Part shown: in pieces, positions 1-6,060 of the stretch
How the letters are laid out: each line of letters begins with the position of its first letter
Numbering within the stretch: position 1 is the stretch's first letter
Source: a virus
Taxonomy: Duplodnaviria; Heunggongvirae; Uroviricota; Caudoviricetes
Length of the DNA stretch: 6,976 nucleotides
Strand: one strand, 5' to 3'
IMG/VR virus record: IMGVR_UViG_2537561980_000011
Notes under the pieces: generated by a model
Seen by the model: the letters and a program-made list of their open reading frames with translations, nothing else
What the model was told of the DNA's origin: nothing
The model's database searches: none
Program-made: the position numbers and the translations under genes

Positions 1-441
1 TACTCAGCGTCGGCAAAGGAGCCATGGGTTCTAGCAACTAACTTACCTGTTGAAATTCGAACACCCAAACAACTTGTTAATATCTATTCGAAGCGAATGC
101 AGATTGAAGAAACCTTCCGAGACTTGAAAAGTCCTGCCTACGGACTAGGCCTACGCCATAGCCGAACGAGCAGCTCAGAGCGTTTTGATATCATGCTGCT
201 AATCGCCCTGATGCTTCAACTAACATGTTGGCTTGCGGGCGTTCATGCTCAGAAACAAGGTTGGGACAAGCACTTCCAGGCTAACACAGTCAGAAATCGA
301 AACGTACTCTCAACAGTTCGCTTAGGCATGGAAGTTTTGCGGCATTCTGGCTACACAATAACAAGGGAAGACTTACTCGTGGCTGCAACCCTACTAGCTC
401 AAAATTTATTCACACATGGTTACGCTTTGGGGAAATTATGA
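1..441 (+). CDS. IS10 transposase, C-terminal fragment (5'-partial at window edge)
   Basis: Continuous frame-1 ORF from nt 1 to TGA at 439-441. The provided 97..441 ORF is just the internal Met-initiated part of it. Sequence recognised as IS10/Tn10 transposase C-terminus. Confidence 0.9.
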   Translation, partial: YSASAKEPWVLATNLPVEIRTPKQLVNIYSKRMQIEETFRDLKSPAYGLGLRHSRTSSSERFDIMLLIALMLQLTCWLAGVHAQKQGWDKHFQANTVRNRNVLSTVRLGMEVLRHSGYTITREDLLVAATLLAQNLFTHGYALGKL

Positions 442-454
442 GGGGATCTCTCAG
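432..454. repeat. IS10 inside-end terminal inverted repeat (about 23 bp) with Dam GATC site
   Basis: Matches the recalled IS10 inside-end sequence in reverse complement; GATC at 446-449. The transposase stop codon lies within or adjacent to the repeat, as in IS10. Confidence 0.8.
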
Positions 455-492
455 GGCACCGCATCACAAAACTCATTGTTGAGGGCGCGATA

Positions 493-681
493 ATGAAAAC
501 GTTATTACCAAACGTTAATACGTCTGAAGGTTGTTTTGAAATTGGTGTCACTATCAGTAATCCTGTATTTACTGAAGATGCCATTAACAAAAGAAAACAC
601 GAACGGGAGTTATTAAATAAAGTATGCATTGTTTCAATGCTGGCCCGTTTACGTCTGATGCCAAAAGGATGTGCACAATGA
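493..681 (+). CDS. hypothetical small protein (62 aa) of prophage early-left region; possibly the 3' part of a gene truncated by the IS10 insertion
   Basis: ORF with GAGGG 7 nt upstream of ATG 493. Its stop TGA (679-681) overlaps the ATG (678-680) of the next ORF (ATGA coupling). Same strand and operon direction as the downstream exo/xis/int genes. The frame is open upstream all the way to the IS10 tip, so the true N-terminus is uncertain. No family recognised. Confidence 0.4.
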   Translation: MKTLLPNVNTSEGCFEIGVTISNPVFTEDAINKRKHERELLNKVCIVSMLARLRLMPKGCAQ

Positions 682-869
682 ATCCAGTATTTGCACTTAT
701 TCTGACGGTTTTTCTTGTTTCCGGAGAGCCAGTTGATATTGCAGTCAGTGTTCACAGAACAATGCAGGAATGTATGGCAGCAGCAACCGAACAGAAAATT
801 CCAGGCAACTGTTATCCGGTCGATAAAGTTATTCACCAGGATAATAACGAAATCCCGGCAGGTCTTTAA
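678..869 (+). CDS. hypothetical small protein (63 aa) with N-terminal hydrophobic segment (signal peptide or membrane anchor) and two Cys
   Basis: ATG at 678 preceded by AAGGA (664-668). The product MNPVFALILTVFLVSGEPV... begins with a hydrophobic stretch. ATGA overlap with the upstream ORF. The provided 624..869 ORF is the same frame with an upstream Met; I prefer 678 because of the RBS and coupling. Confidence 0.5.
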   Translation: MNPVFALILTVFLVSGEPVDIAVSVHRTMQECMAAATEQKIPGNCYPVDKVIHQDNNEIPAGL

Positions 870-962
870 AACAGCACCGTAATAAATATCCAGTTTCATT
901 CTTATATGTCAGCAATGGCAGAGATTTGTTCACCCTTAAATCTGTGATGAGGTTTACCAATA

Positions 963-3404
963 ATGAGCACTGATAAAGAAGAATTTGCACTATATTGCGA
1001 AGCAAAAAATGACAAAGTAAGAAAACGCCTAGGAATTAAAGGTGGTTTTTACTGGACTACAGCAAAAAAATTATCTGTTGCAATCTCCCGCTGCATTACC
1101 GCAATGGATGACAACGATTATGATGAAGACGACTTTAAAAAACCCGTCCGCGTCAATTTGCCCGTTGTTGACGACCTTCCGCCAGAAGGCGTGTTTGATA
1201 CTGAATTCTGCAACCGCTATGAAAAAGGCGGGAAAGATGGCATCACAATGACATTTATCGGCCCTTCCCCCTCTGTTCAGGACAAACCAGCCAGCACTGA
1301 CAATACCAACATCAACGGCGAAGACATGGCTGAGATTGAGGAGAGCATGCTTCTGCCTGTCTCCGGTCAGGAACTGCCCATTCGTTGGCTTGCTCAACAC
1401 GGCAGCGAAAAACCAGTAACGCACGTTTCACGCGACGAACTCCAGGCATTACACATTGCACGGGCTGAAGAACTACCGGCTGTTACTGCCCTGGCTATTT
1501 CGCATAAAACCAGTCTGCTCGACTCGCTGGAGATTCGCGACCTCCACAAACTGGTTCGTGACACTGACAAAGTTTTCCCTAATCCTGGTAATTCAGACCT
1601 GGGACTAATAACTGCTTTTTTCGAAGCATACCTGGACGCTGACTACACTGATCGGGGTCTGCTGACAAAAGAGTGGATGAAAGGAAATCGTGTTTCACGC
1701 ATCACCCGCACGGCTTCCGGTGCTAATGCTGGCGGTGGGAACAAAACCGATCGCAATCCGAATTTAGTACACACCCTCGACACACTGGATGTGGAGATTG
1801 CAGCAGCCACACTTCCGATGGATTTTAATATTTATGAAATTCCGGGCAGCGTTTATCGTCGCGCAAAAGAAGTAGTCCTGAACAAAGAAAGTCCGTTCAA
1901 AGAATGGTCCGCAGCACTTCGTGCAACCCCGGGTATTCTGGACTATTCCCGCGCCGCTATTTTTGCACTTATCCGAAGCGCACACCCTGAATTTTATCAC
2001 TACCCGGGACGCCTTCAGGGGTATATCAACGCCTATTTGACGGAAACTGATCACGAGAACCCCAGCAAGGAAACTCTCACAGCTGCCCGGCATACGCCGG
2101 AAAAAGATATCCTGGAAGAAATTAACCGCGAGGTGGTTACTGAGCGTGAAACAGAAGAAGAAAAACCACAACCATCTGACGCAATGGCAGGTGAACAGGC
2201 AACAACTGAAACAATGGAACCGGATACAACTGAACATGGCCAAAACGCGCAGTCGCTGGATGCTCAGTCGCAGGTGAGTTCCGCTAACCAAGTAAAAGTC
2301 ACCGCTGACGAAGTAAACAAAATTATGCAGGCAGCCAATATCAGCCAGCCTGACGCCGATAAGTTACTTGCTGTATCGCGTGGTGAATTTGTTGAGGGGA
2401 TTAGCGACCCGAATGATCCGAAATGGATTAAGGGGATCCAGACCCGCGATTCTGTGAACCAGAACCAGCAAGAAACGGAACAGAACGACCAGAAAGCGGA
2501 ACAAAACAGCCCAAATACGCAACAAAACGAGCCAGAAACGAAACAACCTGAACCAGTAGTGCAACAGGAACCGGAAAAGATCTGCACCGCCTGCGGTCAG
2601 AGCGGTGGCGGCAACTGCCCTGATTGTGGTGCGGTGATGGGTGACGCAACATACCAGGAAATATTCGATGGAGAGAATCAGCCTGAAGTTCAGGAAAATG
2701 ATCCGGAGGAAATGGAAGGCACTGCGCATCAGCACAAGGAGAACCCTGGCGGCAATCAGCATCACGCCAGCGATAATAAAACTGGCGAGGCGACAGATCC
2801 CTTAATTAAGGTGAATGGTCATCATAAGCTCACATCCACCAGCAGAGCGGGGATTCATCTGATGATCGACCTTGAAACCATGGGAAAAAATCCCGATGCC
2901 CCGATTATCTCAATAGGCGCAATATTTTTCGATCCACAAACCGGAGATATGGGACCGGAATTTAGCAAGACCATCGATCTGGATACTGCTGGCGGAGTCA
3001 TTGATCGTGACGTCATTAAATGGTGGCTAAAGCAATCACGTGAAGCGCAGTCTGCCATTATGACCGATGAAATCCCGTTAGATGATGCACTACTGCAATT
3101 GCGGGAATTTATCGACGAAAACTCCGGTGAATTTTTTGTTCAGGTCTGGGGTAATGGGGCCAACTTCGACAACGTGATTTTACGCCGTTCATACGAACGA
3201 CAGGGTATCCCCTGCCCGTGGCGCTACTGCAACGATCGCGATGTACGCACAATCGTTGAGCTGGGGAAAGCCATAGACTTCGATGCCAGAACTGCTATCC
3301 CATTCGAAGGTGAGCGCCATAATGCACTTGATGACGCTCGTTACCAGGCAAAATACGTTTCAGCTATCTGGCAAAAACTGATCCCGAGTCAGGCTGATTT
3401 TTAA
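963..3404 (+). CDS. RecE-like prophage protein (813 aa): RecE N-terminal homology region, acidic Q/E-rich linker, CxxC-x7-CxxC zinc ribbon, C-terminal DEDDh (DnaQ-like) 3'-5' exonuclease domain
   Basis: Long ORF with GAGG about 10 nt upstream of ATG 963. Residues about 110-500 (NGEDMAEIEESMLLPVSGQELPIRWLAQHGSEKPVTHVSRD...TASGANAGGGN...KGIQTRD) match my memory of the N-terminal, non-catalytic region of Rac RecE (exonuclease VIII). The C-terminal 180 aa carry DEDDh motifs: MIDLETMG (D636/E638, nt 2868-2876), NGANFDN (D736, nt 3168-3170), HNALDD (H786/D791, nt 3318-3335). Zinc ribbon CTACGQSGGGNCPDCG at nt 2583-2627. Confidence 0.85.
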   Translation: MSTDKEEFALYCEAKNDKVRKRLGIKGGFYWTTAKKLSVAISRCITAMDDNDYDEDDFKKPVRVNLPVVDDLPPEGVFDTEFCNRYEKGGKDGITMTFIGPSPSVQDKPASTDNTNINGEDMAEIEESMLLPVSGQELPIRWLAQHGSEKPVTHVSRDELQALHIARAEELPAVTALAISHKTSLLDSLEIRDLHKLVRDTDKVFPNPGNSDLGLITAFFEAYLDADYTDRGLLTKEWMKGNRVSRITRTASGANAGGGNKTDRNPNLVHTLDTLDVEIAAATLPMDFNIYEIPGSVYRRAKEVVLNKESPFKEWSAALRATPGILDYSRAAIFALIRSAHPEFYHYPGRLQGYINAYLTETDHENPSKETLTAARHTPEKDILEEINREVVTERETEEEKPQPSDAMAGEQATTETMEPDTTEHGQNAQSLDAQSQVSSANQVKVTADEVNKIMQAANISQPDADKLLAVSRGEFVEGISDPNDPKWIKGIQTRDSVNQNQQETEQNDQKAEQNSPNTQQNEPETKQPEPVVQQEPEKICTACGQSGGGNCPDCGAVMGDATYQEIFDGENQPEVQENDPEEMEGTAHQHKENPGGNQHHASDNKTGEATDPLIKVNGHHKLTSTSRAGIHLMIDLETMGKNPDAPIISIGAIFFDPQTGDMGPEFSKTIDLDTAGGVIDRDVIKWWLKQSREAQSAIMTDEIPLDDALLQLREFIDENSGEFFVQVWGNGANFDNVILRRSYERQGIPCPWRYCNDRDVRTIVELGKAIDFDARTAIPFEGERHNALDDARYQAKYVSAIWQKLIPSQADF

Positions 3405-3419
3405 TGTTCAACCCTAATT

Positions 3420-3445
3420 GCCGCTAACCGTATATAGTTAGCGGC
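3420..3445 (+). other. perfect 9-bp inverted repeat (GCCGCTAAC / GTTAGCGGC, 8-nt loop) between the exonuclease gene and xis; possible RNA processing or protein-binding site; not a canonical intrinsic terminator
   Basis: Seen directly: 3420-3428 GCCGCTAAC, loop CGTATATA, 3437-3445 GTTAGCGGC. No T-tract follows the stem. Confidence 0.3.
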
Positions 3446-3462
3446 GGTTATGAGATATAGCT

Positions 3463-3666
3463 ATGAGCAGCTTATTTTTAACCGAAGATGAATTGCTAAT
3501 ATTAACGGGCTGCAAATATGCAAGCCACCAGCGAAAATGGTTAATGGAAAACGGGCTTCCGTTCTATACCAATCGTAGTGGCAAACCGATTGTCAGCCGG
3601 GATCTATTTACCTGCAATAAAACTTTACCACCACGCGAGGTAGAGCCGAATTTTGGTGCGATCTGA
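3463..3666 (+). CDS. small excisionase-like protein (67 aa; DUF4224-like phage protein typically found immediately upstream of integrases)
   Basis: Position immediately upstream of, and coupled to, the integrase gene: stop TGA 3664-3666 overlaps ATG 3666-3668. Size and the motif LTEDELLILTGCKYASHQRKWLMENGLPFY resemble the small DUF4224-type proteins encoded next to lambdoid integrases. The RBS is weak and function is inferred from context. Confidence 0.55.
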   Translation: MSSLFLTEDELLILTGCKYASHQRKWLMENGLPFYTNRSGKPIVSRDLFTCNKTLPPREVEPNFGAI

Positions 3667-4690
3667 TGGGAAGACGAAGGAAAAATCCTGAACACGAAAA
3701 ATTACCTCCAAATGTATACCCAAATAAATATAGTTATGTATGGAAACCAACATCCAGAGAATCTGTCACACTAACCGCCATCAAGGATGGTTTAGCTGCT
3801 TTATGGAAAAAGTATGAGGAAACTGTAAATAATCGCGATCGTGCAATGACATTCGGTCGCTTGTGGGAAAAATTCCTCGCCAGCGCCTATTACAGTGACC
3901 TTAGTCCAAGAACACAAAAAGATTATCTGCAACATCAAAAAAAGTTGCTTGCCGTATTCGGTAAGGTACCAGCGGATTCCATAAAACCAGAACACATCCG
4001 TCGATACATGGACAAAAGAGGGGAGCAGAGTAAAACGCAAGCCAACCATGAAAAAAGCAGTATGTCCCGTGTTTACAGTTGGGGGTATGAGCGAGGGTAC
4101 GTGAAGGCTAACCCATGTGCAGGTGTAAGTAAATTCAAGGCCAAAAACCGCGAACGATATGTAACCGACAAAGAATACCAGGCAGTATTAAGCGTTGCAC
4201 CTCTTCCTGTTTTTATCGCAATGGAAATTGCCTATCTGTGTGCAGCGAGGGTTTCCGATGTGTTATCGCTGAAATGGGAACAGATTGGAAACGACGGGAT
4301 ATTCATCCAGCAAGGGAAAACCGGAAAAAACAGATAAAAGCATGGAGTCCACGATTACAGGCAGCGATCGAAAAAGCAAAACAGTTACCAAAATCTGCCT
4401 ATGTGATCAGCAATCAATACGGCAACCGATATATGTACAAAGGCTTTAACGAAATGTGGGTAGATGCAAGAAATCGTGCTGGAAAAATTTCAGGTATTTT
4501 AACCGACTTCACCTTTCATGATCTGAAGGCGAAAGGAATTTCAGACTATGAAGGAAGCAGCCGGGATAAGCAACTTTTCTCTGGTCACAAAACCGAAGGG
4601 CAAGTGCTAATCTATGACAGGAAGGTTAAAGTTTCACCAACACTTGATGTCCCGTTACCTGAAAATATTCCAAGAAAATATTCCAAGTAA
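3666..4690 (+). pseudogene. int: lambda-family tyrosine integrase, disrupted by a frameshift in an A-run (about 4325-4330); would be about 341 aa if one A were restored
   Basis: N-terminus MGRRRKNPEHEKLPPNVYP... is the lambda Int-type arm-binding N-terminus (lambda: MGRRRSHERRDLPPNLY). The catalytic region is recognisable (ARVSDVL box I Arg; QQGKTGK; HDLK; SGHKTE; LIYDR with the Tyr). Frame 3 runs 3666..4337 and ends ...GKTGKNR*; frame 2 continues ...NRKKQIKAWSPRLQ... to the stop at 4688-4690. The two frames join through a 6-A run that would read GKTGKKQIKAW with 7 A. Confidence 0.85.
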
Positions 4691-4742: not shown

Positions 4743-4832
4743 TGGCGGAGAGAGGGGGATTTGAACCCCCGGTGGAGTTGCCCCCACTCCGGTTTTCGAG
4801 ACCGGTCCGTTCAGCCGCTCCGGCATCTCTCC
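4743..4832 (-). tRNA. serU: tRNA-Ser (anticodon CGA), 90 nt with long variable arm
   Basis: The reverse complement reads GGAGAGATGCCGGAGCGGCTGAACGGACCGGTCTCGAAAACCGGAGTGGGGGCAACTCCACCGGGGGTTCAAATCCCCCTCTCTCCGCCA, a class II tRNA with anticodon loop CU-CGA-AA and an encoded CCA end. Adjacent to mtfA and asnT as in the E. coli serU-mtfA-asnT locus. Its 3' end faces the prophage integrase, which is typical for a tRNA att site. Confidence 0.9.
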
Positions 4833-5899: not shown

Positions 5900-6060
5900 A
5901 TTTTCTGTTTTCATGCATCCTTGCAAATCTTTATCTGATGTTGATTCAACAGGTTAGTGTGAAAACTCTTCTCGGTGCATTCTGATTTTACCCTACGCAT
6001 CGGGAAAAATTGGTGGTCAAATCTGGGATCAGGTTAGTTCGATAATGGAGTGACCCCCAT

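Follow-up and report, generated by a model that had tools for sequence, protein, structure and literature searches.

What is the N-terminal part of RecE for when neither the RecE nuclease nor RecT accompanies it? This question is raised by one gene in a 6,976-nt stretch of viral DNA (Caudoviricetes; IMG/VR virus record IMGVR_UViG_2537561980_000011), the whole of which is called the window here. RecE and RecT are a workhorse of recombineering. The window holds a single long open reading frame (ORF) at 963..3404 on the + strand, which starts with ATG, has no internal stop and encodes 813 amino acids (aa); 100% identical copies are labelled 'exonuclease' in complete Escherichia coli genomes. Sequence comparisons give good support to the view that this protein joins the complete non-catalytic part of RecE to a DEDDh exonuclease domain of the DexA/Rv2179c type with an intact active site. 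The protein is built from known parts: the C-terminal domain and the partner gene that define RecE and RecET are absent, and every sequence and fold feature of the DexA/Rv2179c type that was tested is present.

Similarity to RecE and position of the domain swap

In BLASTP, the window protein was 58% identical to K-12 RecE, with aa 58-615 corresponding to RecE 50-591. The NCBIfam RecE equivalog NF007259 aligned aa 1-616 to model positions 1-603 of 877 and scored 933.4 bits, under the curated cut-off of 1269 bits, because the RecE C-terminus is missing. Pfam placed Exonuc_VIII (PF06630) at aa 57-189 (1131-1529; E 1e-35). The resemblance to RecE proposed in an earlier note on this DNA was therefore real, but its extent was underestimated: it covers about three-quarters of the protein, up to aa 615, and not two-thirds.

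Along the gene, whose features all lie on the + strand, a RecE-type folded N-terminal region at aa 1-395 (963..2147; from Pfam, BLASTP to RecE and AlphaFold2, AF2) is followed at aa 396-630 (2148..2852) by a Q/E/N-rich linker. The linker is mostly disordered according to the AF2 predicted local distance difference test (pLDDT) and is common to RecE, where it was aligned to residues 380-591. Within it, alignments, a coverage peak and AF2 mark a conserved island at aa 443-500 (2289..2462), comprising two short helices and the motif SRGEFVEGISDPNDPKWIKGIQTRD. The island is common to RecE and to the variant with a YdfE-type head described below, and the conserved linker motif SRGEFV..DPNDPKW.KGIQTRD was also found in RecE in the BLASTP alignment. 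Downstream of the island, a zinc ribbon of the form CxxC-x7-CxxC (aa 541-555; 2583..2627; letters CTAC...CPDC) was aligned to both RecE and the exonuclease of phage Tritos. In a coverage profile of 150 cluster representatives, the highest conservation in the head was at aa ~240-340, and a second peak lay over the linker island.

At the DNA level, blastn against Rac gave 92% identity to K-12 recE over 1301-1754 and 74% over 2154-2806. Homology to recE ended at nt 2806, about where the PF12684 match of RecE begins (RecE aa 615). Because the DNA homology stops there, the swap junction was placed at about aa 615, equal to RecE aa ~590 (2806..2808; BLASTP, Pfam and blastn versus recE). PF12684, the RecE nuclease domain, was not matched by Pfam in the window protein, whereas K-12 RecE matches it at aa 615-850. 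RecE (exonuclease VIII of Rac in K-12) thus ends in a PD-(D/E)XK 5'-3' nuclease (PF12684; 3H4R) and the window protein in a DEDDh domain, while the N-terminal ~600 aa, the Q/E-rich linker, the linker motif and the zinc ribbon are alike in the two. The exchange is confined to the C-terminal ~200 aa. The linker and zinc ribbon, which had been taken as part of the nuclease replacement, are not, since both are present in RecE.

The 454-bp patch at 1301-1754 stands out, with 92% identity to K-12 recE, as the rest of the shared region is either at 74% or undetectable by blastn. From sequence identity, this patch looks like a recent gene conversion between prophage paralogues.

The C-terminal domain and its relatives

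The C-terminal part belongs to another family. Pfam identified Rv2179c-like (PF16473; Rv2179c/DexA-type DEDDh 3'-5' exonuclease) at aa 632-803 (2856..3371) with an E value of 3e-66 and 222.8 bits against a cut-off of 27, and the match spanned profile positions 2-177 of 177. D636, E638, D736, H786 and D791 fell in invariant columns together with D7, E9, D119, H186 and D191 of T4 DexA. The DEDDh set is therefore complete, as had been claimed from the letters, and the profile search also agreed with the expectation of a hit of this kind without PF12684. The C-terminal domain of the predicted model adopts a DnaQ/RNase T-like (DEDDh) fold, in line with the same claim. The ratio of nonsynonymous to synonymous substitution rates (dN/dS) of the domain was 0.11 versus the mEp460 allele and also versus the Tritos allele, which indicates at the sequence level that the domain is under purifying selection.

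The sole PDB sequence match was T4 DexA (8KEL/8KEN). DexA is a 3'-5' DNA exonuclease, classically credited with scavenging host DNA among other functions, and EcD ('HREX'), a homologue from E. coli, degrades T4 DNA containing 5-hydroxymethylcytosine (5hmC) and protects the cells (Kang et al. 2025; PMC12153337). DexA (PDB 8KEL), EcD and the window domain belong to the same Pfam family and have the same five catalytic residues. However, identity to DexA was 26%, and DexA is a stand-alone protein of 227 aa, whereas the window domain carries a 615-aa RecE-type extension. EcD, known here from the description in the paper, likewise appears to be stand-alone, unlike the window protein. The alignment column of DexA D90 lay 72 residues after the first catalytic Asp in the window protein, 75 in EcD and 83 in DexA; the short spacing fits the remark that EcD is without some DexA surface loops (PMC12153337).

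The similarity to EcD brings in a rival explanation, according to which the protein is a phage-versus-phage nuclease for superinfection exclusion or defence, with a DEDDh domain that destroys the nucleic acid of competing phages and a RecE-type head that is auxiliary. The activity of EcD against T4 speaks for this, as do the TONDO enzymes, ISG20-like DEDDh exonucleases that are encoded by prophages, carry differing auxiliary domains, shorten RNA-phage genomes at the 3' end and act against MS2 and Qbeta (2026 preprint; PMC13344964). The gene is moreover kept intact in very many prophages, defective ones included. Of the DexA residues reported to recognise 5hmC, though, W152 is not conserved and D169 is probably not. 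W152 aligned to C756, just before an invariant N-D-R-D-V-R-T block (the residue is Tyr in the Tritos allele), and D169 aligned to A770, in a gapped loop where the position is uncertain and D772 lies two residues away. In addition, the tetramer-forming Asp of DexA, D90, which is Ala in EcD and whose loss marks the EcD-like dimer state, is kept as D708. From C756, A770 and D708, with the proviso on the D169 position, the window protein has no EcD signature. The PADLOC match was weak and generic (DEDDh, E 1e-4), and the TONDO survey took only hits under 500 aa and describes TONDOs as differing in sequence from the other defence-linked DEDDh domains that it cites (PMC13344964). With the operon data given below, a defence function of this kind is unlikely.

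Closer relatives of the domain were found without the head. The exonucleases of the Escherichia phage Eeyore (L005:5995-6567) and the Yersinia phage YeP1 (L006:5995-6567) are stand-alone proteins of ~190 aa, 55-58% identical to aa ~648-812 of the window protein. Like the window gene, they occupy the terminal slot of an early operon, followed by a small gene that has no annotation but lies where an excisionase gene would, and then by an integrase; unlike it, they encode no RecE-type head, linker or zinc ribbon. Because these stand-alone relatives are encoded just upstream of the integrase in both phages, with only the small gene in between, the sequence data suggest that the fusion arose by a recE head joining an exo-xis-int module. 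In Eeyore, a queuine tRNA-ribosyltransferase-like gene is next upstream of the exonuclease, which hints at modified DNA.

Two further DEDDh proteins differ more in their setting. Mycobacterium tuberculosis Rv2179c (PDB 4HEC), the founder of PF16473, is a stand-alone bacterial 3' exoribonuclease, whereas the window protein is a multidomain phage protein. Cap18 (PDB 7T2S), a 3'-5' exonuclease associated with cyclic-oligonucleotide-based antiphage signalling systems (CBASS), is a 177-aa protein of host defence islands, unlike the window gene in both genomic context and N-terminal region.

Absence of an annealing-protein partner

In Rac, recT follows recE; no recT follows the window gene. Downstream flanks were read in the window and in nine related loci (L001, L002, L004, L008, L009, L012-L014 and L016), and in all of them the xis-int side came directly after the exonuclease gene. 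Neither recT nor any other annealing gene was present beside the exonuclease in the window or in the intact elements examined. In L001, a prophage of E. coli 14EC029, no PHROGs match to RecT, Redbeta, ERF or Sak was obtained among ten proteins of the early right operon, and none was annotated in the left operon; likewise, no annealing protein was annotated in the complete genome of phage Tritos. The earlier observation of a 58-bp gap to xis with no adjacent recT is thus extended to these relatives.

The same arrangement was seen in divergent proteins. Four divergent fusion proteins at five loci, with 31-41% identity in the N-terminal region, were again encoded by the last gene before the integrase. 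An excisionase gene was in between at most of these loci, and the families differed (DUF4224, or a lambda-type Exc with an Arm-binding Int). No annealing gene was seen at these loci (the L012-L016 set).

In two-component SynExo recombinases, the gene of a 5'-3' dsDNA exonuclease of the lambda-Exo/RecE/YqaJ fold has that of an annealing protein (RecT/Redbeta, ERF, Sak or Sak4) next to it. The window gene shows neither feature: its catalytic fold is DEDDh and no such gene adjoins it. Without a cognate annealing protein, it would not encode a two-component SynExo recombinase, and the statement that it is not a classical RecET system stands.

Predicted structure

A full-length AF2 model was built on 94 diverse sequences, and aa 1-400 were modelled separately. 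In the full-length model, the head (aa 1-395) had a pLDDT above 90 apart from the loop at aa 104-115, and the aa 1-400 model reached a pLDDT of 92 with a predicted template modelling score (pTM) of 0.67. By contrast with the head, aa 397-625 were largely disordered, with a pLDDT below 50 at 397-450, 490-538 and 557-625; the linker helices at 448-457 and 465-472 had a pLDDT of 63-79, and the zinc ribbon was weakly predicted. The C-terminal domain was confidently modelled at aa 631-810. A profile search gave no real sequence relative of the head in the PDB. According to the models, the RecE-type head is a well-defined fold with no solved counterpart.

Prevalence, diversity and sister variants

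Prevalence was determined in 5426 complete E. coli genomes, with the whole gene counted at a coverage of at least 80%. The whole gene was found in 1265 of the 5426 genomes, with the full-length ORF intact in at least those. The DEDDh-coding segment was present in 4041 genomes, at 8089 loci and with up to 7 copies per genome, and the segment comprising the RecE nuclease and recT in 1728. The DEDDh form is thus commoner in E. coli than canonical recE-recT (approximately three-quarters versus one third of genomes).

Head diversity was assessed by searching aa 1-620 against 1.8 billion cluster representatives, which yielded 265 clusters at 50% identity; with aa 1-560 as the query, nothing beyond near-identical E. 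coli sequences had been obtained. Among the 80 representatives of at least 450 aa, the C-terminus was DEDDh in 15, a RecE nuclease in 22 and neither in 43. When 20 of these 43 were analysed with Pfam, 18 matched only Exonuc_VIII; of the other two, one matched PF12684 weakly and the other was a RecT fusion.

These data bear on the explanation that the gene is an inert recombination scar, an accidental fusion of recE and an exonuclease gene carried passively by decaying prophages. Lambdoid genomes are mosaic, the window copy lies in a defective prophage (an insertion sequence, IS, upstream and a frameshifted integrase), and a RecE-head::RecT fusion exists too, all of which would suit such an origin. 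Yet at least 1265 complete genomes, and functional phages too, have the ORF intact over its full length, 15 separate 50%-identity clusters share the layout of head plus DEDDh, the dN/dS of the domain is 0.11 and five of five catalytic residues are kept. The conservation data contradict the scar explanation, which is highly improbable.

In the RecT fusion, P0124 (703 aa), a RecT domain (PF03837, aa 528-678) comes straight after a RecE head; the protein stems either from a deletion that merged recE with recT or from faulty assembly. Roughly half of the long homologues of the head (representatives P0194-P0267) end in 200-400 residues that are neither DEDDh nor RecE nuclease. Apart from the RecT fusion and the weak PF12684 match, Pfam named no alternative C-terminal domain on RecE-type heads among the 20 representatives. 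Further C-terminal modules may exist on such heads.

A sister variant of 823 aa was found in the phages mEp460_ev081 and Tritos, where its gene takes the same place in the order dicB, ydfD, exo, xis, int. Phage mEp460_evo81 was described as a functional temperate phage (PMC10448788). The Tritos/mEp460 exonuclease corresponds to the window protein at aa 443-813 with 78-96% identity, which covers the linker, zinc ribbon and DEDDh domain, and is weakly similar at aa 270-360. In contrast, the first ~245 aa are unrelated, as a 'YdfE-type' head replaces the RecE-type head. The pseudogene ydfE of the K-12 Qin prophage (256 aa; L007:5079-5999) was 99% identical to the N-terminus of the Tritos protein (L009:5684-8152), and ydfE is therefore the IS2-truncated head of the sister variant. 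It was also considered as an N-terminal remnant of the window gene itself; BLASTP gave no similarity between the two, and the relationship holds for the sister variant only. A Pfam entry named 'YdfE_C' (PF27432) was listed between Exonuc_VIII and Rv2179c-like in the precomputed Pfam tables of the L012, L013, L014 and L016 proteins. Our own Pfam scans did not return PF27432, including those of P0158 and P0131, whose precomputed tables list it.

Position in the early-left operon

Intact relatives have the order CI-like repressor, DUF1391, ydfB, ydfC, (dicF), dicB, ydfD-like gene, exonuclease, DUF4224 excisionase and integrase. There is good support for the exonuclease gene being the final member of a Qin-type early-left operon, with xis-int following immediately; six related elements, among them the functional phages Tritos and mEp460, have it in this place too. 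In K-12, DicA acts as the repressor of the corresponding Qin operon (PMC10448788). In Rac, the equivalent place has the order kilR...racC, recE, recT, ralR, rcbA, xisR, intR, so that RecE and the window protein are encoded in the same kind of operon and in the same slot upstream of xis-int. As recE-recT fills the equivalent slot of Rac, the exonuclease gene and recE-recT are alternative cassettes.

The + strand showed nothing promoter-like within 400-3800, and terminator-like sites did not rise above background. A promoter or terminator belonging to the exonuclease gene itself was accordingly rejected. This location, inside a repressor-controlled lytic operon and with no promoter-like site of its own, is unlike that of a typical lysogen-expressed moron and counts against the defence explanation.

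The operon is also where a second rival has its footing, namely that the protein acts as a host-takeover or anti-defence nuclease in lytic growth, on host DNA fragments for salvage or on retron msDNA, guide strands or oligonucleotide signals. The early-lytic slot beside the host-directed DicF, DicB and YdfD is in keeping with this proposal, and host DNA scavenging is a classical role of DexA in T4 (PMC12153337). Moreover, the DNA exonuclease of the Rac prophage was listed among retron-interacting proteins (bioRxiv 10.1101/2022.08.27.505566). On the other side, degradation of the host chromosome is not known for temperate lambdoid phages, and the protein matched no known anti-defence family in scans that included Pfam and PADLOC. 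We regard host takeover or anti-defence as distinctly doubtful.

Proposed role

The reading we favour, and hold to be rather probable, is that the gene encodes an early-operon, metal-dependent 3'-5' exonuclease of Qin/Rac-like lambdoid phages, which has a RecE head and no annealing partner and trims or degrades 3' ends during lytic growth. Upon induction or infection, the early-left operon would be transcribed and the protein made early. By analogy with its relatives, it would be an exonuclease of 3'-5' polarity that needs Mg or another metal and attacks the free 3' ends of DNA and possibly also of RNA. The RecE-type head, linker and zinc ribbon might bring the enzyme to the same target or partner as RecE, although this targeting role is a guess. 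The 3' ends of phage or host DNA would then be trimmed or degraded in lytic growth, with recombination left to host functions.

Several points weigh against this reading. A 3'-5' exonuclease without an annealing protein has, to our knowledge, no obvious place in known phage recombination schemes, and an annealing protein recognised by neither PHROGs nor Pfam could have escaped notice. The head model had no structural match in the PDB or, by Foldseek, in BFVD. The function of the RecE N-terminal region is described as unknown (PMC11611040), which touches the targeting role of the head. Finally, EcD, the only characterised E. coli homologue of the catalytic domain, is reported to be an anti-T4 defence nuclease, which suggests a role of another kind (PMC12153337).

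A different proposal gives more weight to the head. The non-catalytic part of RecE, of ~600 aa, might be an autonomous platform made up of an orphan-fold head, the linker motif and the zinc ribbon, which works independently of the nuclease, and the DEDDh version might be not a recombinase but an early-lytic weapon against a specific nucleic acid, such as that of a competing phage, retron msDNA or another immune component, with the platform recognising the target or a host partner. We consider this tentative and not likely. If it were true, the platform would occur in lambdoid phages in two pairings, one with a 5'-3' nuclease and RecT, the other with a 3'-5' DEDDh nuclease but no annealing protein.

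Under the favoured reading of an early 3'-5' exonuclease, the N-terminal ~600 residues of RecE would have been reused in nature with a nuclease of opposite polarity, as judged by analogy with its relatives, and without RecT. This natural domain swap means that neither the RecE nuclease nor RecT can be required for what the head, linker and zinc ribbon do, and it makes the role of the RecE N-terminal region testable.

No experimental study of a RecE-head::DEDDh protein was found in the literature, and to that extent the architecture is uncharacterised, as the earlier note supposed. It is nevertheless already catalogued: the RefSeq name is 'exonuclease' or '3'-5' exonuclease', and the PF06630+PF16473 pair is precomputed in public collections. 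Automatic annotation as exodeoxyribonuclease VIII, also mentioned in the earlier note, does occur in phage records. The variant is thus widespread, annotated and apparently unstudied. It is among the commonest unstudied enzymes of E. coli prophages, often with several copies per genome. As relatives of the catalytic domain have recently been linked to defence against phages, the enzyme's role could matter for immunity mediated by prophages and for gene exchange between lambdoid phages, Shiga-toxin phages included.

Features of this prophage copy

From nt 455 onwards, the window was 99.8% identical to prophage L001 of E. coli 14EC029, which lies beside tRNA-Ser(CGA) and mtfA. The first 454 nt (1..454) are an IS element end, with the C-terminal part of a DDE transposase at 97..441 (weak Pfam match to DDE_Tnp_1). 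We take this to be the inside end of IS10, an identification that comes from the end sequence and not from a database match. The IS end lies 38 bp upstream of dicB and cuts dicB-ydfD-exo-xis-int from the repressor/promoter region and dicF.

The cell-division inhibitor gene dicB (493..681, + strand) is an ORF at the same position as the dicB annotated in L001, and a ydfD-like gene (DUF1482; 678..869, + strand; Pfam and L001 annotation) is immediately upstream of the exonuclease gene. Downstream, 58 bp separate the exonuclease gene from the excisionase-like ORF (DUF4224; 3463..3666, + strand; Pfam and L001 annotation). Most of this gap is filled by a hairpin with a 14-bp stem and no U-tract (3415..3450, + strand; RNA fold -21 kcal/mol, z -3.5), which was not called as a terminator. 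The tyrosine integrase gene (3666..4690, + strand; ORFs and Pfam) is frameshifted into the overlapping ORFs 3666..4337 and 4238..4690, and a tRNA-Ser(CGA) beside it (4743..4832, - strand; ARAGORN and Rfam) is the likely prophage end. Thus, the exonuclease gene of the window is intact, whereas the prophage around it is defective (IS upstream, integrase frameshifted). In two complete genomes (L001 and L002), the integrase is also recorded as 'frameshifted' while the upstream exonuclease stays intact.

Towards the end of the window, a P4-type integrase gene follows a tRNA-Asn (6050-6976, 6061-6222). Its first ~50 codons are in another frame, which makes it a probable pseudogene. Record L004 is 99% identical, and there the yersiniabactin genes of the high-pathogenicity island (HPI) come after this integrase gene.

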